DNA of 64,000 nt from an uncultured Bacteroidales bacterium (lineage in GTDB: Bacteria; Bacteroidota; Bacteroidia; Bacteroidales; CAZJDA01). A program made the position numbers and the translations under genes. How positions within the stretch are numbered: position 1 is the stretch's first letter; each line of letters opens with the position of its first letter. The stretch spans positions 76,661 through 140,660 of the forward strand of contig CAZJDA010000005.1 of assembly GCA_964544705.1 (NCBI GenBank), written 5' to 3'. Positions 20,862 through 37,568 of this stretch are shown piece by piece. The notes under the pieces were generated by a model. That model was not told the DNA's origin. It ran no database searches and saw only the letters and a program-made list of their open reading frames with translations.

Positions 20862-21212
20862 TTATGTATCTTCATTTTTGTCAATTAGAGCATCTAGCCA
20901 ATCAATTAACTCATCTATATACTCTTCGATAATTTGCCACACGATCTCATAATCAATCCCGAAATACTCATGAACGATTCTGTTTCGAAATCCACGAATC
21001 CTTTTCCATTCTATCTCCGGATTAGCGTCTTTGAAACCAGGATCAACCCGGTTGGCTGCCTCTCCAATTACCTCAAAGTTCCGAACAACCGCGTCCATTG
21101 TTTTTTCATCGGAAATAAATGAATCAAAATCAAGACCAGCTATATACCGCTTAATCTTTTGAGCGGATTGAAACATGTCATCTAACAGTAACAATGTATC
21201 TCGCTTAGACAT
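20862..21212 (-). CDS. hepT: HepT-like (DUF86) RNase toxin
   Basis: Rx4HxY motif in FRNRIVHEY. The gene overlaps the upstream nucleotidyltransferase gene by 8 nt. Confidence 0.8.
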   Translation of the reverse strand: MSKRDTLLLLDDMFQSAQKIKRYIAGLDFDSFISDEKTMDAVVRNFEVIGEAANRVDPGFKDANPEIEWKRIRGFRNRIVHEYFGIDYEIVWQIIEEYIDELIDWLDALIDKNEDT

Positions 21213-21495
21213 ATATTAAATCTGGATCAATTGATTTTAAATATTTTTCTTTAATTCCTTTTTTTGAAACCAAATCAACCTTAAATCCAACAATATTTTC
21301 TAAATCATCTGCAAGGTCAACGAACCGGATTCCAATTTTATCTGAAAACTCAACAAGAATATCCAGATCACTGGAATCATTTTGTTCCTGGCGTGAATAA
21401 GAACCAAAAATCGCCATGGTTTTTATTGGATATTCATGAAGCAATCTTTGTTTATGAATATTCAACGTGTTTTTTATTTCCTGCAATGTTTTCAT
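21205..21495 (-). CDS. mntA: MntA-like minimal nucleotidyltransferase antitoxin
   Basis: GSYSRQEQNDSSDLDILV matches the GSxxR...DxD NTase motif. Confidence 0.8.
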   Translation of the reverse strand: MKTLQEIKNTLNIHKQRLLHEYPIKTMAIFGSYSRQEQNDSSDLDILVEFSDKIGIRFVDLADDLENIVGFKVDLVSKKGIKEKYLKSIDPDLIYV

Positions 21496-22975: not shown

Positions 22976-25900
22976 TTAATGCAAAGAAAAATCCACCTTA
23001 GCGCTATCAGTTAGCTTATTAAGAAAGCCATTGCAATCTATTTTATATTTTTTTGAATACATATCAATCGTTATTTTTTCCAAAGGGTCAATAACTTTAA
23101 ATTTTAAAGAACAATTGCCTTTATTACTTTCCGCCAAAGAACTCAATTGATTGATCAGTTCATTGCTCACTTCCTGCACACTGAGTTTTATGGTTAATTC
23201 TTTGGCTTGCTTTTCCATTACTTCTGATAACAAGTTAATAGTATTTACTTGGAATTCATACTGGTCTTTATTCTTGTAATTGGGTGCTACTTTTCCTTTT
23301 ATTAATACCAGGTATCCCTCTTCTAAGTAATTTTTTAACTCAACATATTTGTTTGAAAACATAAACAATTGAATAGCATCTGTATAATCCTCTAAAATAA
23401 ACGATGCCATAGGTTTGTTCTTTTTGGTATATTTATGCTGCACAGAAGTGATAATTCCACCAATTTTTATTTCTTTTTCTTTTTTTTGTTCTATTAGTTC
23501 TTTTAGCTCATTAACAGTATGGTTACAAAAATGTTCAATTTCTATCTTAAAATTATCTAAAGGATGGCCAGAGATGTAAATTCCTATAACATCCCGTTCT
23601 TTTTTTAGCGCATCCAGCTTCCCCCATTCTTCGCATTTCGGCATGGGCGGGTCAGGTATCTCCACTTCTTCACTATCGCCAAACAAGCTAGGTTGCTGGC
23701 TGTTTTTGCGGCTTTCTACGGCATTTACATGTTTAATGGCTTTGTCAATAAAGGTGAGCCCTTCGTTATTTTCTTGGTAAAAATACATGGCCCTGTGCGA
23801 ATCCTTGAAATTATCAAAAGCCCCGGACATGGCAAGGGCTTCAATACATCTTTTGTTGGCCGATTTAAGATTAATCCTTTTCAACAGGTCAAAAAAGCTT
23901 TTAAAAGGGCCGTTAGCTTGTCTTTCTTTTACAATAGCCTCAACGGCTCCTTCTCCTACGCCTTTCACTGCACCTAACCCAAAACGGATAGCACCTTCCT
24001 TGTTTACCACGAAATTGTAAAAACTTTCATTCACATCAGGGCCTAACACGGGAATGCCTTGCCTTTTGCTTTCATCCATGAAGGAGGTAACTTTCTTTAA
24101 GTCGTTGAGGTTGTGGGTTAACACGGCAGCCATGTATTCTGCCGGGTAGTGGGCTTTGAGATAGCCGGTGCGGTAAGCAACAACAGAATAAGCGGCAGAG
24201 TGGGAACGGTTAAACCCGTATTTGGCAAATTTTTCCATAACAGTGAAAACCTCTTTGGCCTTCTCTTCATCAACACCTTTATCTACAGCTCCCTTGACAA
24301 ATATCTTTTTCTGTTCAGCCATCACATCCAATATCTTTTTCCCCATGGCTCTCCGCAAAACATCAGCAGCGCCGAGCGAATAACCTGCCATGATTTGTGC
24401 AGCCTGCATAATTTGCTCTTGGTAAACCATGATGCCATAGGTGTTTTCCAGTATCTCCTCCAACCACGGGTGCGGATACTCAACCTTTTCTCTGCCTTGT
24501 TTCCTGTTGATATAAGTTGGGATAAAATCCATAGGCCCCGGGCGATACAAAGCGTTCATGGCTATCAAGTCTTCTATGCTGGTAGGTTTGAGTTCGCGAA
24601 GGTGGCTCCTCATTCCATCAGACTCAAACTGGAATGTACCTATGGTATCGCCTCGTTGGTAAAGTTCAAAAGTCTTTTCATCTTCAAGGGATACGTTTTC
24701 TATATCGATTTTTTTGCCAAGGCGCAGTTCAATGTTTTCTACAGCATCTTTGAGTATAGATAAGGTCTTAAGCCCAAGAAAGTCCATCTTGAGCATGCCG
24801 GCAGATTCCACGTATTTACCTTCGTATTGGGTTACTGCAAGGTCAGAATCTTTGGCTGTGCTAAGAGGAACATGATTAATAAGCGCCTCTGGGCCAATGA
24901 TAACTCCGCAAGCATGCGTACCAACATGACGTACCGAACCTTCCAGGGTTTTAGCAAAATCAAGGGTTTTTCTTACCTTTTCCTCTCCTTTTTGAAGGGC
25001 TGCCACCAATTCTTTAACGTCTTTATAAGCATCGGCCAGTTTTACTTTGGGCCCTTCCGGGACAAGCTTGGCAAGCTTGTCGGTCTCGGGCAAGGGCAAT
25101 TTCAGAACCCGTCCCACATCCCTGATAGCTGATCTTGCAGCCATCGTTCCAAAAGTAACGATCTGGGCTACCTTTTCCTTGCCGTATTTTTCAATAACAT
25201 AATCCATTACACGTTCGCGGCCTTCATCATCAAAATCAATATCTATATCAGGCATAGAAACTCTTTCGGGATTCAGGAACCTTTCAAAAAGCAAGTTATA
25301 CTTGATGGGGTCTATACTCGTTATTCCAATACAGAACGCCACGGCAGAGCCTGCAGCAGAGCCACGCCCAGGGCCTACCCATACTTTTCGCTTCCTGGCT
25401 TCGTTGATGAAATCTTGCACGATTAAAAAATACCCGGGAAAGCCCATCTCTTTAATGATATTAAGCTCATGGTCTAAGCGTTGTTTGACCTCATCCGTGA
25501 TCTCAGGATACATCTTTTTAGCGCCTTCGTAAGTCAAATGCCGCAAATACTCGTTTTCCCCTTCAAAAGGTTCGGGAATAGGATAAACGGGCAATAATAT
25601 TTCTTTGGTAGTAATCTCGTATTCTTCAACTTTATTGGCAATTTCAACGGTGTTGGTAATGGCTTCCGGCACATCGGCAAAGAGATCTTTCATCTCTTCC
25701 ACCGGCCTGAAATACTCAAAACCCGTGTAACGCATACGCTCGGCGCTTTCCGCATCTTCATTGGTGTTGAGGCAGATGAGGATATCGTGGGCTTCGGCAT
25801 CGTCACGGTTGATAAAATGCACATCATTGGTAGCAATGAGCTTAACGCCATGCTTCTTAGAGAGTTCTATAAGCGCTTTATTCACCGTTTTTTGCTCCTC

Positions 25901-26437
25901 ATGGCCATGATCTTGCAATTCTAAGTAAAAATCTTCTCCAAAAATATCGGTATATTCTTTTAGAACAGCTTCAGCTCTTTCTATTCCATGGTTCATGATG
26001 GCTTTGGGGATTTCGCCTCCCAAGCACGCCGAGCTTGCTATCAAGCCCTCGTGGTTTTCTTTTAACAATTCTTTATCGATGCGTGGGGTGTAATATTTAC
26101 CCTCCAAAAAACCAATTGAGCAAAGTTTTGTAAGGTTCCTGTAACCGGTCTTGTTCTTGGCAAGCAATATAAGATGGTAGCCACTCCTGTCTTCCTTAGA
26201 CTTTTTTTGGAGGTGGCCGTTTCGAGCCATATAAAATTCGCAGCCAATAATGGGTTTGATGCCGTTTTCCCTGGCTTGTTCATAAAAATCGATAACACCG
26301 AACATATTGCCATGGTCGGTAATGGCAATGGAATCCATGCCATATTCTTTTACCTTGGCCATAAGCCCGCCAATATCAGCGGCGCCATCCAGGATAGAAT
26401 ATTGTGTATGTACGTGTAAATGGGTGAATTCGGACAT
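22976..26437 (-). CDS. dnaE: DNA polymerase III alpha subunit
   Basis: PHP domain start MSEFTHLHVHTQYSILDGA, GLLKMDFLGLKTL, and OB-fold tail. I prefer the ATG at 26437 over the track start at 26491. Confidence 0.95.
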   Translation of the reverse strand: MSEFTHLHVHTQYSILDGAADIGGLMAKVKEYGMDSIAITDHGNMFGVIDFYEQARENGIKPIIGCEFYMARNGHLQKKSKEDRSGYHLILLAKNKTGYRNLTKLCSIGFLEGKYYTPRIDKELLKENHEGLIASSACLGGEIPKAIMNHGIERAEAVLKEYTDIFGEDFYLELQDHGHEEQKTVNKALIELSKKHGVKLIATNDVHFINRDDAEAHDILICLNTNEDAESAERMRYTGFEYFRPVEEMKDLFADVPEAITNTVEIANKVEEYEITTKEILLPVYPIPEPFEGENEYLRHLTYEGAKKMYPEITDEVKQRLDHELNIIKEMGFPGYFLIVQDFINEARKRKVWVGPGRGSAAGSAVAFCIGITSIDPIKYNLLFERFLNPERVSMPDIDIDFDDEGRERVMDYVIEKYGKEKVAQIVTFGTMAARSAIRDVGRVLKLPLPETDKLAKLVPEGPKVKLADAYKDVKELVAALQKGEEKVRKTLDFAKTLEGSVRHVGTHACGVIIGPEALINHVPLSTAKDSDLAVTQYEGKYVESAGMLKMDFLGLKTLSILKDAVENIELRLGKKIDIENVSLEDEKTFELYQRGDTIGTFQFESDGMRSHLRELKPTSIEDLIAMNALYRPGPMDFIPTYINRKQGREKVEYPHPWLEEILENTYGIMVYQEQIMQAAQIMAGYSLGAADVLRRAMGKKILDVMAEQKKIFVKGAVDKGVDEEKAKEVFTVMEKFAKYGFNRSHSAAYSVVAYRTGYLKAHYPAEYMAAVLTHNLNDLKKVTSFMDESKRQGIPVLGPDVNESFYNFVVNKEGAIRFGLGAVKGVGEGAVEAIVKERQANGPFKSFFDLLKRINLKSANKRCIEALAMSGAFDNFKDSHRAMYFYQENNEGLTFIDKAIKHVNAVESRKNSQQPSLFGDSEEVEIPDPPMPKCEEWGKLDALKKERDVIGIYISGHPLDNFKIEIEHFCNHTVNELKELIEQKKEKEIKIGGIITSVQHKYTKKNKPMASFILEDYTDAIQLFMFSNKYVELKNYLEEGYLVLIKGKVAPNYKNKDQYEFQVNTINLLSEVMEKQAKELTIKLSVQEVSNELINQLSSLAESNKGNCSLKFKVIDPLEKITIDMYSKKYKIDCNGFLNKLTDSAKVDFSLH

Positions 26438-26667
26438 AGTATTGGGATTTTGGTGTAAAATTATTGAATTTTTTTCTGCCGGTAAAAACAAGTTTTCAAA
26501 AGTTATTAAGAGAGAATGGAGAATGCAGAGTGAAGAAGGCAGAATTTAGGAGGTAGGGGGAGTAGGAACTCTTTTTATTTAAATCAAAATAATATTTCAC
26601 AGCGACAAATTTTGGCATATGGTGGGTTTACTTTTGGAAGCAATTATAAACATTAAAAGATATCAAA

Positions 26668-27603
26668 ATGAAAAACACTAAAGCCTCTAAAACCATGTTG
26701 AGAAAATCGTTATTGAAAATGCTTACCGCTGCTGTATTTATTGTAACAATAGGTTCTTGTTCAAATCCCGAAAAATCAGGTAAAAGAGTTGCGCAGGATG
26801 AATGCGAATGCATGCAAAAAACAGGAAAAGCTCTATTTGCATTAATAGATGAATTTATGAAAAAAATTGAAGAGGAACATTATGATAAACAATGGAATGC
26901 CTTTAAGGATTATTTCACCCTTACAGATGAATTGGCTGAAAAAAATGAAGCCTGTTTAGAAAAAGCTGGATATGAAAAAATGAAAGAGAAATATTTAACC
27001 AATAAGGAGGCTATTGAAAAGTTTGAATACGCTTATAAGGCTCAGTCAGCAAATTGCGATACAACTATAATAAGCAAAAGTGGTGAAAGATTCCTGGAAT
27101 TGGTATCAAGAATAAGGAATATCAGGGATATGGAACATAAATTGAATAAGATGGTCCATTTTTCAAGCTTAAGTACTTCCTGGAATGTTTATTCCTATTT
27201 AGATGCTGATGAAGATTGGACAACGCATTATTTTGAAAATAAGGAGGAATATGACAAAATACCCAAAGATAGCCTGTCAGAGATAAAAAGAAAATTTTTT
27301 TATGGACGAAAAATGAAAACAGGTGATTTTAATAATGATGGTATTACCGACCATGCAACAATTATACAGAATTACTGGGATGGGGATAAAATAAAGTTGC
27401 TTATTGCAAATGGAGGCAACAAAGGAATGTATTTATTAGACACAAGGGGCTCTTTTGGCATAATAGAACAGGAAGAAATGGAAAATGGATTTGGAAAGGG
27501 TATTGGCGATGGCATCATGGATATGTGTAAAGAATGCGTGCCTTTTGTAATACATTGGAATGGAGAAAGATACGAAACAGGTGGATATTTTTGGTTTAAT
27601 TAG
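26668..27603 (+). CDS. Hypothetical lipoprotein (one FG-GAP-like segment)
   Basis: Lipobox TIGSCSN. TGDFNNDGITDHA resembles an FG-GAP/VCBS calcium-binding loop. Confidence 0.5.
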   Translation: MKNTKASKTMLRKSLLKMLTAAVFIVTIGSCSNPEKSGKRVAQDECECMQKTGKALFALIDEFMKKIEEEHYDKQWNAFKDYFTLTDELAEKNEACLEKAGYEKMKEKYLTNKEAIEKFEYAYKAQSANCDTTIISKSGERFLELVSRIRNIRDMEHKLNKMVHFSSLSTSWNVYSYLDADEDWTTHYFENKEEYDKIPKDSLSEIKRKFFYGRKMKTGDFNNDGITDHATIIQNYWDGDKIKLLIANGGNKGMYLLDTRGSFGIIEQEEMENGFGKGIGDGIMDMCKECVPFVIHWNGERYETGGYFWFN

Positions 27604-27751: not shown

Positions 27752-28675
27752 ATGACGAAAAGAGAATCCATATTGAGGTATATATTGATTATCAGGAAGC
27801 TTAGGAATTTCAAATATTGCACCTTCCAAGAAATCAATGATTATTTGCAATCTGAAGGCGAAATTCACGGCTACAACCTTAGCGTTTCCAAAAGAACATT
27901 CCAAAGAGATAAAAATGATATTCGATCCATTTTTAATATGGATATACAATTTGATAGTATGCATAATAAATATTTTATTGAAGAAGAACCCGATGATAGT
28001 GAAGAGTTGAGCCATAGAATGTTAGAAGCATTTGACTTGTTCAATTCGTTAAACCTTGCCCAGGGCATGAAGGAGATTATTTCTGTAGAAACCCGCAAAG
28101 CGCTCGGTACAGAGCACGTGTATGGTTTGATGCATGCCATAAAAAACCGCCACAAAATATCCTTTTTTTATTATAAATATGATGAAGAAAAGCTTACGGA
28201 ACGTGTGGCAGAGCCATTGCACCTCAAAGAATTTAAATACCGGTGGTACCTAATTGCCAATGACATAAATGGCAGGAATAAAACCATGAAAACATTTGCC
28301 CTTGACCGCATGTCTGGGTTAGATATTTTAAAAGAGAAATTTGCTGTACATGAAAAACTTGATTTCAAAGCCTATTTCTTTGATGCATTCGGGATTATAA
28401 AGCCAACAGATAAAGGGCCACGAAAAGTTGTTTTATCTTTCGACCCTTTACAAGGGCAATATATTAAGTCATTGAAGCTCCACCATTCGCAAAAGGTGCT
28501 AATAAATAATAATACGGAATACCGTGTGCAACTAAAAGTATATATTACCTGGGATTTCATACAAGAGTTAATGATGTTTGCCAACACGATGACCGTTATA
28601 GAACCTTTGGAACTAAGAGCGCAAATAAAAAGGATTTGCCGGGGGTGTTTGGAGTTGAATAAGGGGAGTGGGTGA
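27752..28675 (+). CDS. WYL-domain transcriptional regulator (HTH + WYL, BrxR/CapW-like architecture)
   Basis: The N-terminal wHTH-like region and the WYL core ISFFYYKYDEEKLTERVAEPLHLKEFKYRWYLIAND. Confidence 0.8.
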   Translation: MTKRESILRYILIIRKLRNFKYCTFQEINDYLQSEGEIHGYNLSVSKRTFQRDKNDIRSIFNMDIQFDSMHNKYFIEEEPDDSEELSHRMLEAFDLFNSLNLAQGMKEIISVETRKALGTEHVYGLMHAIKNRHKISFFYYKYDEEKLTERVAEPLHLKEFKYRWYLIANDINGRNKTMKTFALDRMSGLDILKEKFAVHEKLDFKAYFFDAFGIIKPTDKGPRKVVLSFDPLQGQYIKSLKLHHSQKVLINNNTEYRVQLKVYITWDFIQELMMFANTMTVIEPLELRAQIKRICRGCLELNKGSG

Positions 28676-28779: not shown

Positions 28780-29217
28780 TTAAGTTGGGATTGGATATAA
28801 TATAATTTCAAAATCAAAACTATCTTTTATTTCTTTAAACAACGCTGATTTTGCAATTTTATTAATACCTTCTTTTTCTGAAATAAAAACGAAAGTTTTA
28901 AAATCCATTTGATTATTTTTTTTAAACACCAAAAATTTTAGTATATCTTTATAAAACTCATGGTGAGGGTTTGTCCCAGAAACTTTTAGTTCATACGCTA
29001 TTTTCTTCTTAGAATCAACCAAATCAATTTTTTCATTTGATTTATCACTTATCGGAACCTCTACAGATATCTCCGGATATTTTTCTTTCGGAAATTTTTC
29101 TTGCCATAATTTAGTTATTATTTGTGATCTTTTTGTCCTTTTTGAAACATCACTTTTGCCTTTTGGGTTCTTGGCAAAAATGGATTTAAGTGGACTAACA
29201 ATATCTTTAATTTCCAT
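28780..29217 (-). CDS. Small protein with a possible PD-(D/E)xK nuclease motif
   Basis: 145 aa. IDLVD-(7 aa)-YELKV fits D...ExK spacing. It is the last gene of a tightly packed four-gene operon (4-nt gap to the exonuclease gene). Confidence 0.45.
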   Translation of the reverse strand: MEIKDIVSPLKSIFAKNPKGKSDVSKRTKRSQIITKLWQEKFPKEKYPEISVEVPISDKSNEKIDLVDSKKKIAYELKVSGTNPHHEFYKDILKFLVFKKNNQMDFKTFVFISEKEGINKIAKSALFKEIKDSFDFEIILYPIPT

Positions 29218-29221
29218 AATC

Positions 29222-29716
29222 TTAATGTTTTATTAATTTCATATACAATTCAGCACAAGCCCTTGCATCAGAAAGGGCTTCATGATGTTTTAATGCAATG
29301 CCTTCAATTGCGCAACACTCATCCAATGTACCTGAAGGATATTTATCAATTCCCCGGCAATATTTCATTGTACACTCCCACCTGTCCGGAATATTTAATT
29401 CTGAATAGTCAAAACCATTATCCGCCATTGATTTCCGTAATGCACTTCTGTCAAAAGATTCATTGTGAGCAACAACAATTTTAGCGGTTAACCGCTTTTT
29501 AATCTCAGGATAAATTTCAATAAACGGAAGTGCGTTCTCGGTATCTTCAGGTGTTATGCCGTGAACCTGCATACAATGCCAATTATATTTGTTATTTGGT
29601 GGTTTAACCAGGGAAAAGTATTCTTCAATTATTTTGCTATTTTCAACCGTAACAATGCCTACGGCGCAAATGTGGTGGTAAATAGCGGTTTCGAAGTCGA
29701 TTGCTGTGAAGGTCAT
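29222..29716 (-). CDS. DEDDh 3'-5' exonuclease (DnaQ/epsilon-like)
   Basis: ExoI AIDFETA, ExoII VAHNESFD, ExoIII HHEALSDA. Confidence 0.85.
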   Translation of the reverse strand: MTFTAIDFETAIYHHICAVGIVTVENSKIIEEYFSLVKPPNNKYNWHCMQVHGITPEDTENALPFIEIYPEIKKRLTAKIVVAHNESFDRSALRKSMADNGFDYSELNIPDRWECTMKYCRGIDKYPSGTLDECCAIEGIALKHHEALSDARACAELYMKLIKH

Positions 29717-29719
29717 GTA

Positions 29720-32077
29720 TTAAATTTTATTAGAGTTCTTCGAATGGTTTAATAGAAAATCTTTGAGTTTTTCTAATGATACATTATCATGCTTTATCCA
29801 TTCCTTATTTTCATTCAGCTCTTCCAAAAAATCCCTTGTGTTCCATCTAAAAGGTTTCTTATCAGAAGTAAACTCGATATCCCATCCCCAGAAAAAGTCA
29901 ACACCTTCTAATTTTTGCTCACTTACAATGACTTGGTTATCTACCAATTTCGATAAAACACTATTCCGTTTATCCCCAACAACATATTTTTTCCAGTTTG
30001 CATTTGCTCTTGGAGGATACAGGCAATGTTTCCCATGCATCCATTTTAATTGACATCCTCCGACAATAAGTGATAATAGATTTGTACATACAAGTTCCCT
30101 ATGGATTGTTTTATTTTCTTCAATGAATGTTTCATCTGGTCTCGCTTTTATTTTTTGCAAATTCATAAGATTATTGTCCAATAAACAACCTACAGGAACT
30201 AACCATTTTTCCTTGGTTAATATATTTTTCCATGCTGAAGCCTTGTTTTCATAGACAATATCCCAAAACTGACCCCAATTATTGAAATGTGAAATGAGGT
30301 TTCGGAGGAGAATAGCATCTTTTTTATACTCATCTTCAACACCTTGTTTATTAAAAAACATCTTACATTTTTCAAACCTATTATCAAATTTATCCCAATC
30401 ATATTCATTATTACCAGTCCTAAATAAAAAACGAATAGCACCTTTAAAAAAGGCTGTATTTTCTGCTTCTATTATCTTATCTTCCCAAGATTTGCCATCT
30501 GAGTCCTTCCAATGTGAGTTATCCAATATTTGTCTGGCTTTTTCCTTTTCTTCCTCCATTTGCTCTTTTGCAAAGTCTTTTGAAACATCACGGTCTCTAA
30601 GATGATTGAGTATATCATGAGAATTATCCGCCAATTCATTAATTAAGCGCATAGCTCCGATCATTTTTTGAATTGAGTCAATATCAGCATTCTCAACAAT
30701 ATTCCAAACAATCCTTATCCAACGCATCAAACTTTTCTTTTCATAATCACCTTTTTCAAAATAGCAACATATAGCATGGAATACAACTCTTTGTGATTGA
30801 GTTATAGTAGTAGGGAAATATTTTTCTCTATCTTCGTCCTTTTTATATCCAGGGATAAATCTAAAATCGGAATTATCCTCCCAATTCGGAAAAAAAAGTT
30901 CATTTATTTCATCTGTTGATGCCCCATTAAAAACATTATGAAAGCGATCAAGTACTTTTTCCAATTTTTCTAATCCTTCCTTAATTACTGACTTTTCCGA
31001 TTCGTAAAGATCAAATCCATTATATCGAATATTAACATCATTTCCTCTATCCCCGTACAAATACTTGAATAATTTATTGTTTTTTTCAGGATCACTAAGA
31101 AATCTTTGTTCTTCCGCTTTTGCTGTTATCAAAAGATTAAGCCAAAACCGATTAATAAAAGCAAAGTAAGCTTTATCAATTTCAGATTCTTGAGACCTGT
31201 ATTTCCAAAAAATATTAGTCCATGTTGTGTCTAACTTATGTTCGATTGTTTCTACAGGAACTTTATTTTGCTGATCGATATTTTTCTCAGTTTCTCCTAT
31301 ATATCCAACAAGATCAGCCTTAAAATTCTCGAAATTGCTTAATGGCTTTCCCCTGGCATTCATTTTAATATACAGATCATCGGATAAGCTCAAATCCAAT
31401 AAATCAATATAATAAAATATAATCGGACAATAGTCTCCTGTTAATTTTTCCCAATATTTTTTGAAGTCACCTTTCACACAGCCCTCGAATATTTCATCGA
31501 AACCATCTATTATTTCGTTTTCCTTATCATCTTTAATGGAATTACCGCCAAGCATGTTCATCATTGCCTGAATAGTTGGGTCTTGTTTCCAGGATGAAAA
31601 AAACCATGTTTGGTTTTTGATTGTTTGTACTATATTGTCGGTTTCGATTGACTCAAAGTCAGAAAGTTTATTGCAAAATTCTCTTGATGTTGTTCGTGTT
31701 TCATAGGTGAATTTTTTAAAAACCCCCCTATTATTTTGCAACTCCCCTGATTTAAAGGCAATATACCAATATAACAGCCATAGAGTTGTTAAACGCTGTT
31801 GTCCATCGAGCGGATTTAACCGGTTATTTTCAACGCTCCCATAAACAAAATCCAATTTTAAAGGTTTATTATCTTTTTCATCTTTCTTATCTAAGGCTGT
31901 TTTTATATCTGTAAGAAACTTTTCACGTAACTTTTCTTTACCTATTCTTCCCTGGGCATAATCACGTTGTATAATCGGAATTTCAATTTTTCGATGTTCA
32001 TTTATTAAGAAAGCCCAAAATGTTGTTTGTTGAATATTATTGTTTTTCATTATTTTCTTTTTCTGGTAAAAATTCAT
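29720..32077 (-). CDS. DUF262 (ParB/Srx-like NTPase) protein without a recognisable DUF1524 nuclease
   Basis: IPIIQRDYAQG and LDGQQRLTTLWLL lie at the N-terminus. I cannot assign the long C-terminal region. The start may be the internal ATG at 32050. Confidence 0.8.
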   Translation of the reverse strand: MNFYQKKKIMKNNNIQQTTFWAFLINEHRKIEIPIIQRDYAQGRIGKEKLREKFLTDIKTALDKKDEKDNKPLKLDFVYGSVENNRLNPLDGQQRLTTLWLLYWYIAFKSGELQNNRGVFKKFTYETRTTSREFCNKLSDFESIETDNIVQTIKNQTWFFSSWKQDPTIQAMMNMLGGNSIKDDKENEIIDGFDEIFEGCVKGDFKKYWEKLTGDYCPIIFYYIDLLDLSLSDDLYIKMNARGKPLSNFENFKADLVGYIGETEKNIDQQNKVPVETIEHKLDTTWTNIFWKYRSQESEIDKAYFAFINRFWLNLLITAKAEEQRFLSDPEKNNKLFKYLYGDRGNDVNIRYNGFDLYESEKSVIKEGLEKLEKVLDRFHNVFNGASTDEINELFFPNWEDNSDFRFIPGYKKDEDREKYFPTTITQSQRVVFHAICCYFEKGDYEKKSLMRWIRIVWNIVENADIDSIQKMIGAMRLINELADNSHDILNHLRDRDVSKDFAKEQMEEEKEKARQILDNSHWKDSDGKSWEDKIIEAENTAFFKGAIRFLFRTGNNEYDWDKFDNRFEKCKMFFNKQGVEDEYKKDAILLRNLISHFNNWGQFWDIVYENKASAWKNILTKEKWLVPVGCLLDNNLMNLQKIKARPDETFIEENKTIHRELVCTNLLSLIVGGCQLKWMHGKHCLYPPRANANWKKYVVGDKRNSVLSKLVDNQVIVSEQKLEGVDFFWGWDIEFTSDKKPFRWNTRDFLEELNENKEWIKHDNVSLEKLKDFLLNHSKNSNKI

Positions 32078-33941
32078 TTAACACTTTTTTAATATTCTCC
32101 TTGTATGCTTCGGCATCTTCTTGATTCCACTCTCGTAAATTATTTGTGGAAGGATTGTAGTACTTCAAAAATACATTTTTTGTGCATGGGGGAACAAAAG
32201 CAACTTCTCCTTCTTTTTGCTCAATTTGTAGGTACTCATCAACCAAAATTGATTTTCCCTGGTCTTTTCCAATGATGGCTCTGCGTTTTGCAGGGAATAT
32301 TGAATTACCATAACTTTTATTTGTCGAACTATCAAGTAATGTAAAGTTCCAGATTTTGTTTTTATCAGTTTCACTTAGTTTTGAGCTATTATCTCTAGCA
32401 ATTATTTTTTCATGCAATTTTTCAAAAATGTCGTTCTCATTCTTTTCACTATTCGCATCATCATTTAAAAATTCGATTATCTTTTTTTTCAAGTCTTCGT
32501 TCTCCAAGCCTATTGAAGATGCTTTTAACCATTCTTTTTGCTGTTCCTTATTCCCTAAGGAATTTTCGGTGCTCGAATCAACATGCTCAACATCCCATTT
32601 TTCTTTTTTGAAAAGATGAAATGGAAATTTATAGAAAACAGGGAGCTTGTATTTCTCATTTTCTATTAAAGCCTTGCTTTGATTAATGACAGTTTGAATG
32701 TTATGAAGCAAAAGAAGCGTTCGACATTGTGTTTTGGGTTTTCCATTTACATCATATTCTTTATCTAAGTCAGAAAAGGATGACATTTTGTTTTTTATCT
32801 CAGATTTGATGTAATCAATAAAATCATCCTTTCTTTTGCTTTTTTTCCATTCTCCAAGCATATCAGAAATTCTACTTCCTTGTTCAGATAGAAAACCTAC
32901 ATAATGATATAATTCTAAATCATTAAACCATTCGTTAAAAGTCTGAAATAATTCTTTTACTTTTCCCCAAGATGTTGAAATGTCGACTTCCTTTTGCTTT
33001 TTAAACCAAGCATAAAAATATCTAAATGTTTTGTATTCATCATCGCCAACCTCCTTTTGTTCCTCATCATTAAGGTTAAGCATATTGTTTTTACAGATTA
33101 AGTCAAAGATAAAATCTATACGTGTGGGTTTATCATAATTGATTTCATTTAGAAAGAGCCAAAACTCATCATTTTGCAGAGTAAATTCAATATAATCCCA
33201 TTCTCCTGCGATCTCTTGTTGTTGCAATCTTATTTTTTGATAATCAGCATTTTTAAAATTTGATTTATTAAGGAATAGTGCTTTAATAAGTTCTGAATTT
33301 GTAAGGGCTATTTTCCCAATATTTAATCTGGTAAAAACTTTTATGGGATCCTCATCTATTGATTCATACCAAATAAATTTCACATTGCCTAAAAGAATCT
33401 TCAAATAGTTGTTTTTGAACTGATTGCTTTCTCTTCCCTTTTCACTAAACCAGTCTGATATTTGCGAATGAGCTTCATAAATATGATGATAATCAATATT
33501 GTCATCTTTTTTAATTCCCTCAATTTTACTTAGAAACTTTTTACTATCGGGTCTTGTCTCATATTCTATCTCATATTCTTTCTTATTTAGATATACAAGC
33601 AAAATAAAAATAGTAGTTAGTCGCTGTTGTCCATCGATAACTTCCCATCGCGAATATTCGTTAATTATTTTTTCTGTTTTGCTTATCAGATTATTCTTGT
33701 CTGTTGGATCAAGCTTTTTAAGCTCATTGCAATAATGCTCTTCATATATAATGTTTTTCTTAATAACAAGAGGTTGAATGCAATAGAAACCTCCTATTTT
33801 TTTTTCTATAGACTCATTAATATCATCCAATAAATCTTTTACTTGTTGCTTAGTCCAGCGATAACCTCTTTGATATTTAGGAATAAAGAAATTCATTCCT
33901 GATAATTCACTTATTGATTTTAATTCAATCTTATTTCTCAT
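32037..33941 (-). CDS. GmrSD-family type IV restriction enzyme (DUF262 + DUF1524 His-Me finger)
   Basis: N-terminal motifs are IPKYQRGYRW and DGQQRLTT. C-terminal motifs are WDVEHVDS and NFTLLDSSTNKSYGN. Confidence 0.85.
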   Translation of the reverse strand: MRNKIELKSISELSGMNFFIPKYQRGYRWTKQQVKDLLDDINESIEKKIGGFYCIQPLVIKKNIIYEEHYCNELKKLDPTDKNNLISKTEKIINEYSRWEVIDGQQRLTTIFILLVYLNKKEYEIEYETRPDSKKFLSKIEGIKKDDNIDYHHIYEAHSQISDWFSEKGRESNQFKNNYLKILLGNVKFIWYESIDEDPIKVFTRLNIGKIALTNSELIKALFLNKSNFKNADYQKIRLQQQEIAGEWDYIEFTLQNDEFWLFLNEINYDKPTRIDFIFDLICKNNMLNLNDEEQKEVGDDEYKTFRYFYAWFKKQKEVDISTSWGKVKELFQTFNEWFNDLELYHYVGFLSEQGSRISDMLGEWKKSKRKDDFIDYIKSEIKNKMSSFSDLDKEYDVNGKPKTQCRTLLLLHNIQTVINQSKALIENEKYKLPVFYKFPFHLFKKEKWDVEHVDSSTENSLGNKEQQKEWLKASSIGLENEDLKKKIIEFLNDDANSEKNENDIFEKLHEKIIARDNSSKLSETDKNKIWNFTLLDSSTNKSYGNSIFPAKRRAIIGKDQGKSILVDEYLQIEQKEGEVAFVPPCTKNVFLKYYNPSTNNLREWNQEDAEAYKENIKKVLNEFLPEKENNEKQ

Positions 33942-34207: not shown

Positions 34208-35788
34208 TCAGAATTTATTAATTCCTATCATCTCAACTAAATCTTCCTGTTTAGCCCCATTGGGATAAATCACTTTTGCCAAGCGAACAAGGTTCCTGAT
34301 TTCCCTGCCGTTTAATTCGATTTTTGACACTTCTGAAAAACCATCTTGAATATTAATATTCGCTTTCTCGCATTTATCTTCCCAAATTTTTTCTCTTGTT
34401 TTTTCATCTAAATCAGGATATTTAATTTTTAAGGTAATTCTTGAATGGATAGCAAAATCGAGTACTTCCGGCCTGTTTGACGTTAAAAACATTACACCTC
34501 TAAAATAGTCCATAAGCCGTAAAAACACTCCCACAATGGCCGTTCTGTTTAAGTCACTTTTTTCTCGTTTCGCAAGAAAAACATCGATTTCATCAAACAA
34601 TACAATGGCATTCCATTTTTCAACTCGTCTAAAAATAGTGGTTAGGCTATTTTCTATACTGTTTAAGTCTGTGCCCAGTTCACTAAAATCTACAGCGTAT
34701 AGTGGCATCTGTTGCATTTCAGAATATACTTCGGCAGTAGATGTTTTCCCAATTCCCGGATTACCCGCTGCAAGTATAATCATACCTCCATGTTTATTAT
34801 CTAATACATCGCCAATAAAAGAATCTATTGATGTAGAAAACACGGTTGTTAAAAGTTTTGTAATATTCTTTGGAAGAAAAATTCTTTTATGTGCCTCTGT
34901 ATCATAAACGTAATCAGTTAAATTATTCACATTTGCAAAAAAATACTTTTTTTGTAAAAAGGAAAACACCCGTACTAATGGTAGTGAAGTATAATGATTT
35001 TTATTAACTTCCTGGTTTCTATTTGAATTATCTCTATATTCTAGCTCTGATTCTATTATTATTCTCTCTTTAATTTTATTGTGACCAATTTTAATGAAAA
35101 TACAATCATCATTATAATAATTTCTACCAAGCATCCTTACACCAAATCCACTGTATAGCATTTGCTTTTTTGTATCTCTTATTTTTTTAAGATATGATAA
35201 TGAATCTTTATGTTTTTCGAGATCACACTGTTGCGGACGACAACCAAACTCGGCAAACAGCTCCTTTAATGTTGGTTTTCTCATTTTCCCATCGGCAGCA
35301 AGTAAGTGTTCTTGCTCAATTTTAAAACCAATATTAATATATTCATAACCAAAACTAACTTTGACGTCAACAAAAACAAAAGCCTTCATATATCTTGTAG
35401 CCGGGTTGAATATAGGTATTGCAATTATAGGAAACCATGTTTTATTGAATAAGATATCTGCGTTTACTTTTTTTACACCTATTCTTGAAAAACATTCAAC
35501 AACATCAGCCAATTTTCTGATCTTTGTATCCCATACTTCATTGATTTGCGAAATTTCAATGTTTTCGCCTAAAAGTTCCATGCTTAAAAGCGCTTTTGTT
35601 TTATTCGCAATGTTGTTTGAATTTTTCAAAAAGAATGATAATAACGATACAGAAATAGAATTACTGTCTATGTCAACAAAACGGCTTTCTGCATTTTGGT
35701 AATTACCAATTTCTTGCTGGTCAGAATTACTTAAGTCCAGCTCTTCTTTAGCTTTATTTAAAAGCGCTTTCTTAATTTTAATATTCAT
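34208..35788 (-). CDS. AAA ATPase (classical AAA clade) with uncharacterised ~330-aa N-terminal region
   Basis: Walker A AAGNPGIGKTSTAE, Walker B IVLFDEIDVF, sensor-1/second region of homology FLTSNRPEVLDFAIHSRI, then LKIKYPDLDEKTREKIW. Confidence 0.85.
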   Translation of the reverse strand: MNIKIKKALLNKAKEELDLSNSDQQEIGNYQNAESRFVDIDSNSISVSLLSFFLKNSNNIANKTKALLSMELLGENIEISQINEVWDTKIRKLADVVECFSRIGVKKVNADILFNKTWFPIIAIPIFNPATRYMKAFVFVDVKVSFGYEYINIGFKIEQEHLLAADGKMRKPTLKELFAEFGCRPQQCDLEKHKDSLSYLKKIRDTKKQMLYSGFGVRMLGRNYYNDDCIFIKIGHNKIKERIIIESELEYRDNSNRNQEVNKNHYTSLPLVRVFSFLQKKYFFANVNNLTDYVYDTEAHKRIFLPKNITKLLTTVFSTSIDSFIGDVLDNKHGGMIILAAGNPGIGKTSTAEVYSEMQQMPLYAVDFSELGTDLNSIENSLTTIFRRVEKWNAIVLFDEIDVFLAKREKSDLNRTAIVGVFLRLMDYFRGVMFLTSNRPEVLDFAIHSRITLKIKYPDLDEKTREKIWEDKCEKANINIQDGFSEVSKIELNGREIRNLVRLAKVIYPNGAKQEDLVEMIGINKF

Positions 35789-35791
35789 TTT

Positions 35792-36091
35792 TTATGTTTT
35801 AATTTTTAAACCAATATCTTCGGCAATTGATTTCCAATATCTATTATGATTATTTTCAAGTCCGGCAATTGCATGCGCAATTTCATGTAATATAGTATTT
35901 TGGATTTCATCGATAGGATCTAACAGAGAGTGCTGATAGTTTAATTTTATAGCTTCATCGGTGCAGTAGCCCAGTTTTAAACTATCATTTGAAAATCCAA
36001 AATCTAAATAATCCACATCGAATTTTACCATCAAGTGATTAGCTAAAGCGATTACTTCCAAAATTTTTTCATTTATTACAAATTGTGCCAT
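35792..36091 (-). CDS. SprT-like HExxH zinc metallopeptidase (minimal, 99 aa)
   Basis: FGFSNDSLKLGYC...IKLNYQ...TILHEIAHAI...NHNRYW follows the SprT-like layout. It overlaps the upstream gene by 23 nt and lies 3 nt before the AAA gene. Confidence 0.6.
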   Translation of the reverse strand: MAQFVINEKILEVIALANHLMVKFDVDYLDFGFSNDSLKLGYCTDEAIKLNYQHSLLDPIDEIQNTILHEIAHAIAGLENNHNRYWKSIAEDIGLKIKT

Positions 36092-36659
36092 AAGTTCTAA
36101 ATAATGACTCTAAAAGTATATAAGCTTCTTCATCTACATTTTTATAATATTCCGGAAATGGTATATTTTTATTCCTATCTGTGATTTCATATTTTGCAAC
36201 ATGGCAATTATAATTATCCAGTTGATTTAGTGCATCATTTGCCATATTATTCTTTTTATTGCCTTCAAATGATGCCGGCAAAGTAACTATTATAGAAAAA
36301 TGCTTACCGGTTTCAGACAAAAACTCAGATAAGCGTAAAGAGAATTTGGTTCCTGTATATCCTCCCAAACCGGCTACAAGAATATAATATTCATTTTCAT
36401 TAAATATATCCATTATTTTGCCCGGCACTATCAAAGGAACACTTTTATCTGTCCAGGCTTCCGGGTACCTGGTATTTTTAAAATGCTCATCTAAGGGAGG
36501 CTGAAACTCCATGAGATTTAAACCCATTGGATTTGAAAAGCGTTCCGGCCGAGATACACAAGTGTACCTGCCATGTAATCCTTTCTTAAAAGTATGTTCC
36601 AAAATCATAGAACCTGCCTGGCCTAAACCAATAAAATGAAAATTTTTGAATGACTTCAT
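36069..36659 (-). CDS. FtsZ/tubulin-like GTPase domain protein, C-terminally truncated (196 aa)
   Basis: The motifs fall in FtsZ order and spacing. FIGLGQAGS corresponds to GVGGGGxN. [10 protein letters not shown] corresponds to [20 protein letters not shown] corresponds to KPFxFEGxKR. YEITDRN corresponds to ITIPNDK. The protein ends around helix H7, before the T7 loop. Confidence 0.7.
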   Translation of the reverse strand: [196 protein letters not shown]

Positions 36660-36909
36660 ATCGTAAAAATTAAATGATTTTTGTATAAAATTACTTCAAA
36701 CAGACTTCATTATTAATTGAATCTATCCTATTTTTCACAAATATAAACCCCCAAGGTGTCAAAACATGTCGCAGTAATTTGGAAAAGGATTTTTTCTATT
36801 TTATGATTCCTATTGGCACTTCTCACTTTAGTTACCTATCTGCAATATTTTTTGTATATTTGAATAGAACTTCAATCAATAGTAACAAACGGAATAACTA
36901 CAAAGTAAA

Positions 36910-37053
36910 ATGGATCTATCCAAATCATTGTTTTGGGATACGGATATCAATAAGGTTGATTACGAGAAACACGCCCGTAAGATTATAGAAAGGGTTTTGA
37001 TGCGTGGAACTTTAGACGACTGGTTTGAAATAAAACGCTATCCTATTTTATGA
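36910..37053 (+). CDS. 47-aa ORF translationally coupled (ATGA overlap) to the PLD nuclease gene
   Basis: Manual translation gives MDLSKSLFWDTDINKVDYEKHARKIIERVLMRGTLDDWFEIKRYPIL. Its stop TGA (37051-37053) overlaps the ATG at 37050. It is below the track length cut-off. Confidence 0.35.
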   Translation: MDLSKSLFWDTDINKVDYEKHARKIIERVLMRGTLDDWFEIKRYPIL

Positions 37054-37568
37054 GTACCAAATTCATTACCAACGAACAACTTTATCAACAAGTTATAGAA
37101 CCCATTATTCAGGCTAAAAAGTTCTTATGGATTGGTACGGCAGATATAAAAGACTTGCACGTTAAGCACCAAGGGGCGGTAAGGTCATTTCTTGCTGTAC
37201 TCGATTCATTGATACGGCGGAAGGTAGCTGTCCGGCTTTTGCATGCCAAAGAACCGGGGCCTAATTTCCGCAAGAGTTTTGATAAATATCCCGGCCTATG
37301 GAGTGGGTTGGAGCGCCAGCTTTGCCCCAGGGTGCATTTTAAGATCATCGTGATAGACGGCAAACTGGCATACACAGGCTCTGCTAATTTAACAGGCGCC
37401 GGGTTAGGCATAAAAAGCCCCAACCACCGCAATTTTGAATCCGGCATCGTAACAACCAACCCTCAAATGATTGACGAGATCATGCAACAATTTGACGAAG
37501 TATGGATAGGAAAACACTGCAAAAATTGCAAAAGAAGAAGTTATTGCTTGGATCCTATTGATACATGA
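37050..37568 (+). CDS. Phospholipase D-family (HKD) nuclease, Nuc-like single-domain
   Basis: The HxK(x4)D(x6)GSxN motif appears as HFKIIVIDGKLAYTGSANLT. At 172 aa it has the size of the homodimeric Nuc-type enzymes. The C-terminus has a CKNCKRRSYC cysteine cluster. Confidence 0.8.
   Translation: MSTKFITNEQLYQQVIEPIIQAKKFLWIGTADIKDLHVKHQGAVRSFLAVLDSLIRRKVAVRLLHAKEPGPNFRKSFDKYPGLWSGLERQLCPRVHFKIIVIDGKLAYTGSANLTGAGLGIKSPNHRNFESGIVTTNPQMIDEIMQQFDEVWIGKHCKNCKRRSYCLDPIDT

Follow-up and report, generated by a model that had tools for sequence, protein, structure and literature searches.

We analysed a 64-kb stretch of contig CAZJDA010000005.1 from an uncultured Bacteroidales bacterium, hereafter called the window, and found on its minus strand a gene, here termed mini-FtsZ, that encodes a genuine FtsZ N-terminal-domain-only protein. 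The gene belongs to a family of FtsZ descent whose members stop after helix H7. This family forms a shortened branch of the FtsZ/tubulin superfamily that evolves independently and stands out by its regulatory context; two surveys of that superfamily do not describe it (PMC9871819, PMC2875224). From the FtsZ ancestry, the missing bottom face and the control by a WYL regulator we infer an action on FtsZ itself, and we tentatively propose, as a possibility still short of probable, that mini-FtsZ, induced by damage or by phage, inhibits the assembly of FtsZ, working as a chain terminator or as a sequestering agent. The positions of all the features discussed are collected in Table 1.

The relationship to FtsZ was assessed through sequence comparisons and structure prediction. 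Specifically, the Pfam model Tubulin (PF00091) matched mini-FtsZ alone at E=8.1e-7 (29.9 bits, under the gathering cut-off of 33), and 66 of the 71 relatives used for the family profile matched it individually. A phmmer search against all PDB chains returned FtsZ almost exclusively, the top match being the Aquifex FtsZ 2r6r (E=9e-5), in which mini-FtsZ residues 9-155 align collinearly with FtsZ residues 12-159. When the family profile (71 members) was compared with the PDB, FtsZ was retrieved at E=2.5e-19 over its residues 9-190, i.e. through H7, and an hhalign comparison of the family with 59 genuine FtsZ sequences gave a probability of 99.4% (E=1.4e-21). AlphaFold2, supplied with a 41-sequence alignment, produced a confident model, with a predicted local distance difference test score (pLDDT) of 90.8 and a predicted template modelling score (pTM) of 0.88, consisting of six strands and their helices and closing with a long helix at residues 168-195 (H7). 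The alignment of relatives was required for this result, the sequence alone giving an unusable pLDDT of 34. In a Foldseek search of the model against the PDB, all 50 matches listed were FtsZ (probability 1.00), with query-normalised TM-scores of 0.55-0.70. With a TIGR00065 (ftsZ) match that remains far from the cut-off of that model (30.3 bits, E=2.7e-7; cut-off 295.2), no match to the Pfam FtsZ_C domain (PF12327) and a chain that stops in H7 before any T7 loop, mini-FtsZ is not a genuine cell-division FtsZ.

A loop-by-loop comparison with FtsZ showed which elements of the nucleotide pocket are kept and which are remodelled. Loop T1 reads GLGQAGSM in the window protein, with a family consensus of GLGGAGxN, in which G11, G13 and G16 are each conserved in at least 93% of the members and G13 in 100%. 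Loop T4 reads GLGGYTGT (family pattern G97-L-G-G-x-T-G) and thereby departs from the tubulin signature GGGTG(T/S)G; at the position of the third signature Gly, the 127 relatives with a readable T4, drawn from 144 relatives with a recognisable first strand, have Tyr in 71 cases, Phe in 11 and Gly in one. In T5, LPASFEG corresponds to the family motif LPFxFEG (P128-F-x-F-E132-G), with P128 conserved at 99-100% and E132 at 93-94%. The H7 Asp is also kept (NVDEE), and the H6-H7 segment of the family, LxLxeAFxkADE, is close to the FtsZ pattern (I/L)sLxdAFxxAD. The other elements are changed or missing: the NTD of FtsZ T2 is replaced by SRP (S-x-P in the family), the GLGAGA of T3 by HFKNTR, where the loop of the family is longer, varies and contains F.PP, the T6 Asn is lost, and both the T7 loop and the C-terminal domain are absent. 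The consensus of the 71-member alignment, HFIGLGGAGxN ... YTcI ... F.PP ... ICSLPFxFEG ... AFxKADE, marks the window protein as a somewhat deviant member, with Q14 for Gly, M18 for Asn and A129 for Phe. Across the family, then, T1 and T4 persist together with the Glu of T5 and the Asp of H7, and T2, T3 and T7 do not.

One relative, of 199 amino acids (aa) and encoded at L038:1506-2105 (+), scores 96.8 bits against genuine FtsZ, far above the other members. It is likely an evolutionary intermediate, since it keeps T3 (GMGA) and T6 (ND) alongside GGYTGT and the truncation after H7. A 214-aa open reading frame (ORF) without any match overlaps its end by 4 nucleotides (nt).

A preliminary description of this DNA had presented the product of 36069..36659 as a GTPase-domain-only protein with the GGYTGT variant and no T3 or T7 elements, collinear with FtsZ and ending near H7. 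The alignments and the model bear this out: the three peptide strings that it quoted are all present in the translation, the phmmer and profile alignments are collinear to H7, and no rival fold emerged among the Foldseek matches listed. Its expectation regarding canonical head-to-tail polymerisation with GTP hydrolysis is likewise shared here, such polymerisation being implausible because the protein is a GTPase domain only, has neither T3 nor T7 and is not a frameshifted fragment.

This last point rests on the extent of the family. An exhaustive HMMER search over 1.84 billion cluster representatives (50% identity clusters) retrieved 285 clusters of relatives at E<=1e-3, of which 118 reached E<=1e-10. 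All but four of the best 150 of the 285 relatives are 165-260 aa long, with a match spanning the whole query, and nearly all of the 150 listed stop at one and the same point, in H7. A profile search of a large database found family members at E<1e-30, of 133-255 aa and in one case 319 aa, none of them with an FtsZ_C domain; genuine FtsZ appeared from 1e-15 downwards, cleanly separated from the family, and the sole item between the two groups was a 373-aa protein without any Pfam domain (3e-25). A word-indexed search of 5.8 billion proteins with mini-FtsZ returned only the protein itself. In the window, no FtsZ C-domain sequence lies downstream of mini-FtsZ in any frame, and the FtsZ profile matches the mini-FtsZ ORF only. 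Therefore, the notion of a pseudogene, i.e. a decaying fragment of a full-length FtsZ-like gene, for which nothing speaks except the short length, is effectively refuted by the uniformly short relatives, the strong conservation of the motifs and the confident fold.

The named sources of the family are all Bacteroidota, namely metagenome-assembled genomes of Flavobacteriales, Bacteroidales, Salinivirgaceae and Lentimicrobiaceae, Flavobacterium sp. and unclassified Bacteroidota, and the relatives are labelled there as 'hypothetical protein' or, wrongly, as 'cell division GTPase FtsZ'. Both these homologues and the type of promoter point to a Bacteroidota host for the window as well. A phage or plasmid origin is not supported, because no relative was found in IMG/VR viral contigs, GenBank phages or PLSDB plasmids, the viral-contig scan using one peptide pattern that reaches close relatives only.

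In addition, 61 of the 144 relatives (~42%) carry an N-terminal leader, M-x-RR-x-a-[IL]-K (RR or RK) followed by 12-25 uncharged residues, which often ends in an LP...hydrophobic-x-Ala site or a lipobox-like Cys and thus has the layout of a twin-arginine translocation (Tat) signal peptide. Examples are the proteins P0125, P0128 and P0145 (among P0122-P0297) and the members in the related loci L022, L025, L026, L028, L029 and L034. Such a leader would suit an exported or membrane-associated protein whose pocket holds a small molecule, perhaps a nucleotide cofactor, its FtsZ ancestry being a matter of history. In L029 the start codon of the leader is translationally coupled to the upstream WYL gene, and the remodelling of T2, T3 and T6 would also agree with an exported ligand-binding protein, as would the pocket residues, which are conserved equally in leader-bearing and leaderless members; this equal conservation argues for one shared biochemical function. 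Curated Tat models, however, barely detect the leaders, TIGR01409 matching one of 10 leader-bearing relatives with 14.1 bits (cut-off 16.7) and Pfam TAT_signal one of 71 relatives. The window protein has no Tat signal, because strand S1 starts at residue 7, and ~58% of the relatives are leaderless as well. Moreover, leaderless members with a hydrophilic N-terminal extension retain (E/R)RxxaL(K/R)xL, which suggests a role of this peptide other than export, and the H6-H7 interface segment is strikingly FtsZ-like. On balance, we regard an exported ligand-binding role, unconnected with FtsZ filaments, as rather unlikely.

The regulatory context of mini-FtsZ was derived from a conserved inverted repeat found upstream of WYL genes at seven independent loci, with the structure CGACAcatnTTGTCG + N11 + TAnnTTTG, in which the spacing between the box and the Bacteroidota -7 promoter element TAnnTTTG is exactly 11 nt. 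In form, the repeat agrees with the published consensus of DriD, CGAC-N7-GTCG, and with the site of DdaA, CGACAATATGTGTCG (PMC13010146). A matrix built from the seven WYL-upstream sites, all of them in other loci, was scanned on both strands of the window (~128,000 positions), and only three positions, corresponding to two sites, scored above 7, the next best score of 6.9 being background. The first site is a palindromic box flanked by -7-like elements on both strands, which gives the best score in the window; it lies between dnaE (22976-26491), which it also faces, and the operon formed by a 311-aa ORF and the WYL gene. The second is a predicted box located 78 nt upstream of the mini-FtsZ start codon, where CGACATGTTTTGACA, taken together with its -7 element TATATTTG at the 11-nt spacing, scores 16.3 as against 6.9 for the best background.

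When the related loci were scanned in the same way (660 kb, both strands counted), boxes appeared in the correct orientation 5-200 nt upstream, and in one case 647 nt upstream, of genes for WYL, AAA, PDDEXK_4, Mrr_cat, RNase_T-like, RmuC and mini-FtsZ proteins. Besides the window (26584-26636), boxes are borne by L003, L004, L011, L018, L025, L026, L029, L030, L031, L034 and L036, and the mini-FtsZ gene itself is preceded by one in L018, in L036 and, via a small upstream ORF, in L013. A box placed 11 nt from TAnnTTTG would thus define a candidate WYL regulon in Bacteroidota, and mini-FtsZ is a well-supported candidate for control by a DriD/DdaA/PafBC-type WYL regulator.

The same class of regulator emerged from the gene neighbourhoods. 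We collected 44 loci, in part with a 13-sequence alignment of the family, called and clustered their genes and annotated the neighbours with Pfam; the comparison covers about 19 distinct mini-FtsZ loci. The recurrent neighbour is a WYL-WCX regulator of ~300 aa (cluster c1), whose gene stands directly upstream of mini-FtsZ, on the same strand, in 8 of the ~19 loci (L014, L022/25/26, L023, L024, L029, L031-33 and L034), with a gap of ~12 nt in several loci and a 4-nt overlap in L029. In three more loci, i.e. L018, L030/L011 and the window, it is found within a few genes. The regulator in the window belongs to the same cluster, is 45% identical to that of L014 and matches only PafBC in a PDB sequence search (E=5.7e-4).

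This adjacency, the tightest of any pair, could be taken to indicate that mini-FtsZ is a partner of the WYL regulator, acting as co-sensor, anti-activator or feedback element, all the more as the pair usually closes a gene array at its 3' end and is followed by a gene on the opposite strand. The characterised regulators DriD, DdaA, PafBC, CapW and BrxR, on the other hand, need no such partner, and the two genes also occur apart: regulators of cluster c1 are present without mini-FtsZ in L003 and L004, no WYL gene was found near mini-FtsZ in L009, L010, L013 and L016, and in the window the two genes are separated by 7.4 kb in convergent operons. A partnership of this kind therefore appears improbable.

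These data are compatible with the following model for mini-FtsZ as a terminator of FtsZ chains. FtsZ filaments grow by the docking of a GTP-bound subunit, via its N-terminal domain, on the end that exposes T7. Mini-FtsZ retains the pocket face of FtsZ (T1, T4, T5 and the H6-H7 segment) but has neither the T7 loop nor the C-terminal domain, to which a further subunit would attach, so that it may dock on a growing filament end exposing T7, or on free FtsZ, and block further growth. In FtsZ, the N- and C-terminal domains fold independently (PMC11157280). The predicted box in the operon promoter is that of a DriD/DdaA/PafBC-type regulator, and expression would be expected to switch on upon DNA damage or phage attack, because this class of regulator senses single-stranded DNA. 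DriD, DdaA and PafBC are sensors of single-stranded DNA that turn on responses to DNA damage; the division inhibitor didA is a direct target of activation by DriD, and aciT is activated by DdaA (PMC9186387; PMC13010146). An equivalent role for defence islands is ascribed to CapW/BrxR-type WYL relatives (PMC11662680, PMC9122601). Cell division would in this way be arrested while damage is repaired or an infection is aborted, and the SprT-like protease and the AAA unfoldase, probably co-transcribed here, would be fellow members of the regulon and not obligatory partners. It is possible, though less likely than not, and we suggest it with corresponding caution, that mini-FtsZ is a natural Z-ring chain terminator under a single-stranded-DNA-sensing WYL regulator that represents the missing SulA counterpart of the phylum and the first bacterial checkpoint or abortive-infection inhibitor made from a fragment of its own target.

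Several observations weigh against an inhibition of FtsZ assembly by mini-FtsZ. T3 in FtsZ contacts both the gamma-phosphate and the neighbouring subunit (PMC11157280), and its loss means that the docking face is remodelled. The three substitutions of the window protein described above (G14->Q, N18->M and F129->A) fall in the pocket. If the Tat-like leader is real, the members that bear it are periplasmic and away from FtsZ. As regards the regulation, the box before mini-FtsZ has a perfect left half and GACA in place of GTCG in the right half, the 15-nt box alone scores 8.4 bits and ranks eighth in the window, and the WYL regulator may activate or repress.

In the window, mini-FtsZ is predicted to be the first gene of an operon that continues with the genes of a minimal SprT-like zinc metalloprotease and of an AAA ATPase. 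The SprT-like gene overlaps the end of mini-FtsZ by 23 nt. The ATPase belongs to the classic clade, has an uncharacterised, novel N-terminal region of ~330 residues and counts ~90 full-length relatives. It resembles IetA of the ATPase-plus-protease defence pair IetAS, a weak similarity that in the PADLOC model covers the ATPase core only (E=2.7e-14, residues 289-489 of 526) and in the NCBIfam model stays far below the cut-off (2.2e-10). A PDB sequence search with the AAA protein gave no match at E<=1e-10, and no PADLOC-DB 2.0 model matched mini-FtsZ or the SprT-like protein.

Table 1. Features of the 64-kb window discussed in the text.
Feature	Position	Strand	Remarks
Mini-FtsZ	36069..36659	-	196 aa, ATG start; FtsZ N-terminal nucleotide-binding domain only (strands S1-S6, ending in helix H7; signature GGYTGT)
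SprT-like minimal zinc metalloprotease	35792..36091	-	99 aa, HEIAH motif; Pfam SprT-like E=1.4e-7, above gathering cut-off
AAA ATPase	34208..35788	-	526 aa; Pfam AAA E=1.3e-14; starts 3 nt past the SprT stop
GmrSD_N (DUF262) proteins, two, in tandem	32037-33941 and 29720-32077	-	Pfam
RNase_T-like exonuclease	29222-29716	-	Pfam
145-aa protein	28780-29217	-	weak SMEK_N match
WYL-WCX transcription regulator	27752..28675	+	307 aa; Pfam WYL and WCX; cluster c1
311-aa ORF	26668..27603	+	no Pfam match; directly upstream of the WYL gene, downstream of the box
Palindromic box CGACAAATTTTGGCA	26603-26617, within 26584..26636	both	-7-like elements flank it on both strands
Box with -7 element	26603-26636	+	matrix score 18.6, best in window
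Box with -7 element	26584-26617	-	matrix score 17.9; same box, opposite strand
Predicted box CGACATGTTTTGACA with -7 element TATATTTG	box 36757-36771, -7 element 36738-36745	-	11 nt between them; matrix score 16.3

The genes at 28780..33941 follow on the same strand and are possibly, but not necessarily, transcribed together with mini-FtsZ; no intrinsic-terminator-like site was found on the minus strand of this interval, in a scan for sigma-70 promoters and terminators that is uninformative for this organism. Two further groups of genes in the window were noted. At 37050-37568 (+), a divergent small DUF6922 ORF is accompanied by a PLD-family nuclease with DrmC-like matches, and at 20862-21495 (-) a HepT-like RNase is coupled with a nucleotidyltransferase (MNT) in a pair of the toxin-antitoxin type, which adjoins a DUF58/vWA gene, a thioredoxin gene and dnaE.

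The preliminary description had linked mini-FtsZ to the AAA protein as its partner and had seen in it a sensor or switch rather than a cytoskeletal element. In the related loci the AAA family is found near mini-FtsZ in 4 of the ~19 distinct loci, among them L030, L031-33 and L034, and the SprT-like gene in two distinct loci; in the AAA-centred view, one of eight distinct AAA loci has mini-FtsZ, L042-L044 being among those without it. The AAA protein is therefore a frequent neighbour of mini-FtsZ, not an obligatory partner, and the WYL-WCX regulator recurs in its stead. A separate box and promoter precede the AAA gene in L030, L034 and L004, which points to a co-regulated unit and not to a fixed partner.

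The sensor or switch would be a subunit that takes up GTP or a similar nucleotide, leaves it unhydrolysed and controls the SprT-like protease and the ATPase, for example as an adaptor or activator. The translational coupling of the three genes in the window (23-nt overlap, 3-nt gap), the family-wide conservation of T1, T4, the T5 Glu and the H7 Asp, the presence of the AAA family at the loci just named and its likeness to IetA could all be accommodated by such a subunit. Nevertheless, the missing T2 and T3 are the gamma-phosphate sensors on which a GTP/GDP switch depends, and the rarity of the association and the separate AAA promoters also speak against it. A sensor or switch is possible, and nothing specific to it emerged; we consider it unlikely. 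A cytoskeleton-related role, i.e. the capping or sequestering of FtsZ, fits the regulatory context better.

The pairing of the AAA protein with a minimal SprT-like metalloprotease recurs in itself, in the window (34208-36091, -) and in L004-6, L031-33 and L044, and in L043 and L044 a gene for an FtsH-like M41 protease follows the AAA gene. In L031 and L033 (~1571-2998) an insertion sequence, made up of a 93-aa ORF and a 294-aa rve-family transposase, lies within the AAA gene of an AAA-SprT-WYL-mini-FtsZ array and cuts it into pieces of 367 and 187 aa. Genes of the uracil-DNA-glycosylase type flank AAA(-SprT) modules at L044:811-1842 and L007:3569-4327 (GEAPG motif, with a Pfam UDG match in L007) and add to the DNA-repair flavour of these loci. 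At L002:2182-2586 (+), a 134-aa ORF occupies the mini-FtsZ position upstream of SprT-AAA. We considered this ORF as a complementary C-terminal half of FtsZ, since its PGFISVDLSDF aligns with the H7-T7 segment (PGLINlDFaDV) of an FtsZ profile; the match amounts to only 7 bits, and neither Pfam nor the PDB lent support, so that it could be a complementary half or a chance match, a weak lead and not a finding. A gene of the PAD_porph family (agmatine or peptidyl-arginine deiminase type) is found just downstream of mini-FtsZ in two unrelated loci, at L010:3275-3967 and L013:7886-8755, one from Bacteroidales and the other from Flavobacterium.

Other neighbours recurring around mini-FtsZ are PDDEXK_4, Mrr_cat and RNase_T-like nucleases, RmuC, SRAP and the exonuclease VII large subunit (XseA), the RNase_T-like gene standing beside the WYL and mini-FtsZ genes again in L025, L026 and L029. 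Defence modules are also found nearby, namely GmrSD, McrBC, type I restriction-modification, type III CRISPR, AAA_13 and PLD, so that the neighbour genes share a DNA-damage or defence theme. With defence-type genes, including the PDDEXK and Mrr nucleases, around every locus examined, and with BrxR/CapW-type WYL regulators known to co-localise with defence systems (PMC9122601, PMC11662680), mini-FtsZ could be imagined as an immune decoy or poison that, by mimicking FtsZ, traps phage-encoded FtsZ inhibitors and so triggers neighbouring effectors, or that terminates phage tubulin chains. The neighbouring effectors differ, however, from locus to locus, no PADLOC model is matched by mini-FtsZ, phage tubulins and phage FtsZ inhibitors are without evidence here, and the Tat-like leader counts against a decoy as it does against an FtsZ chain terminator. 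We therefore judge a decoy or poison very improbable.

If mini-FtsZ does cap FtsZ, this would reveal the division inhibitor that a major phylum, including gut Bacteroides relatives and Flavobacteria, uses upon DNA damage, would provide a natural protein inhibitor of FtsZ, an antibiotic target, and would illustrate how a polymer subunit can evolve in a simple way into the terminator of its own polymer. Irrespective of capping, the boxes outline a candidate Bacteroidota regulon, comprising nuclease, exonuclease, RmuC, AAA-SprT and mini-FtsZ genes, under a box of the same form as those of Caulobacter DriD and Acinetobacter DdaA. A real Tat-like leader, for its part, would imply an exported tubulin-fold nucleotide-binding domain, itself unexpected.

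In comparison with FtsZ, mini-FtsZ has the same fold as the N-terminal GTPase domain and is collinear with it from S1 to H7, with T1, T4, T5 and the H6-H7 AFxxAD recognisable. FtsZ has ~380-400 aa, whereas mini-FtsZ has ~196 and is devoid of T7, the C-terminal domain, the linker and the C-terminal peptide; T2, T3 and the T6 Asn are lost, and GGYTGT stands for GGGTGTG. FtsZ is encoded in the division gene cluster, whereas the gene of mini-FtsZ belongs to a variable island and is preceded by a WYL box. The T7 face of FtsZ, on which mini-FtsZ would be expected to dock, is also where SulA binds (structure 1OFU). The logic proposed here resembles that of SulA (LexA-controlled), DidA (DriD-controlled) and AciT (DdaA-controlled), in which a damage-induced small protein blocks division, and the regulator class and the box CGAC-N7-GTCG of DriD and DdaA match the mini-FtsZ context. 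None of the three is related in sequence or fold to mini-FtsZ, a putative inhibitor, and DidA and AciT, unlike mini-FtsZ, are small membrane proteins; DidA is reported to suppress septum synthesis (PMC4211646).

Among the divergent members of the FtsZ-tubulin superfamily, FtsZl1 and FtsZl2 (Makarova and Koonin 2010, PMC2875224) invite comparison. In FtsZl1, too, the T6-H7 elements that canonical filaments require are missing, and FtsZl2 keeps all the structural elements (PMC2875224). FtsZl1 is a long protein, in which the FtsZ-like domain is followed by a coiled coil and then by a helical C-terminal domain, and its neighbours are vWA, GTPase and OmpA-family genes (PMC2875224). By this published description mini-FtsZ, with its 196 aa, nothing after H7 and different neighbours, does not belong to FtsZl1, and neither of the two combines an N-domain-only architecture of 200 aa with a link to a WYL gene. 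As for defence and repair systems, no FtsZ-like component was found in PADLOC or in the literature searched on defence and WYL contexts, and the likeness to the IetAS pair and to Cdc48 with Wss1/SPRTN (DNA-protein crosslink repair) concerns the neighbouring AAA and SprT-like proteins, not mini-FtsZ.

FtsZ-derived proteins that act on FtsZ offer further comparisons. ARC3 of plant chloroplasts contains an FtsZ-derived domain without GTPase motifs and is a negative regulator of FtsZ assembly; it is eukaryotic and multidomain, with MORN repeats, and serves in division-site placement, unlike a damage-induced bacterial protein. Subunits with a working top and a defective bottom face are said, in work from 2005 and 2018 linked with the names of Redick and Du respectively, to cap filaments and to be toxic at low ratios. 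Such laboratory fragments and interface mutants of FtsZ are engineered, whereas mini-FtsZ would be a naturally occurring counterpart, encoded by a gene that evolves on its own and has its T3 region remodelled.

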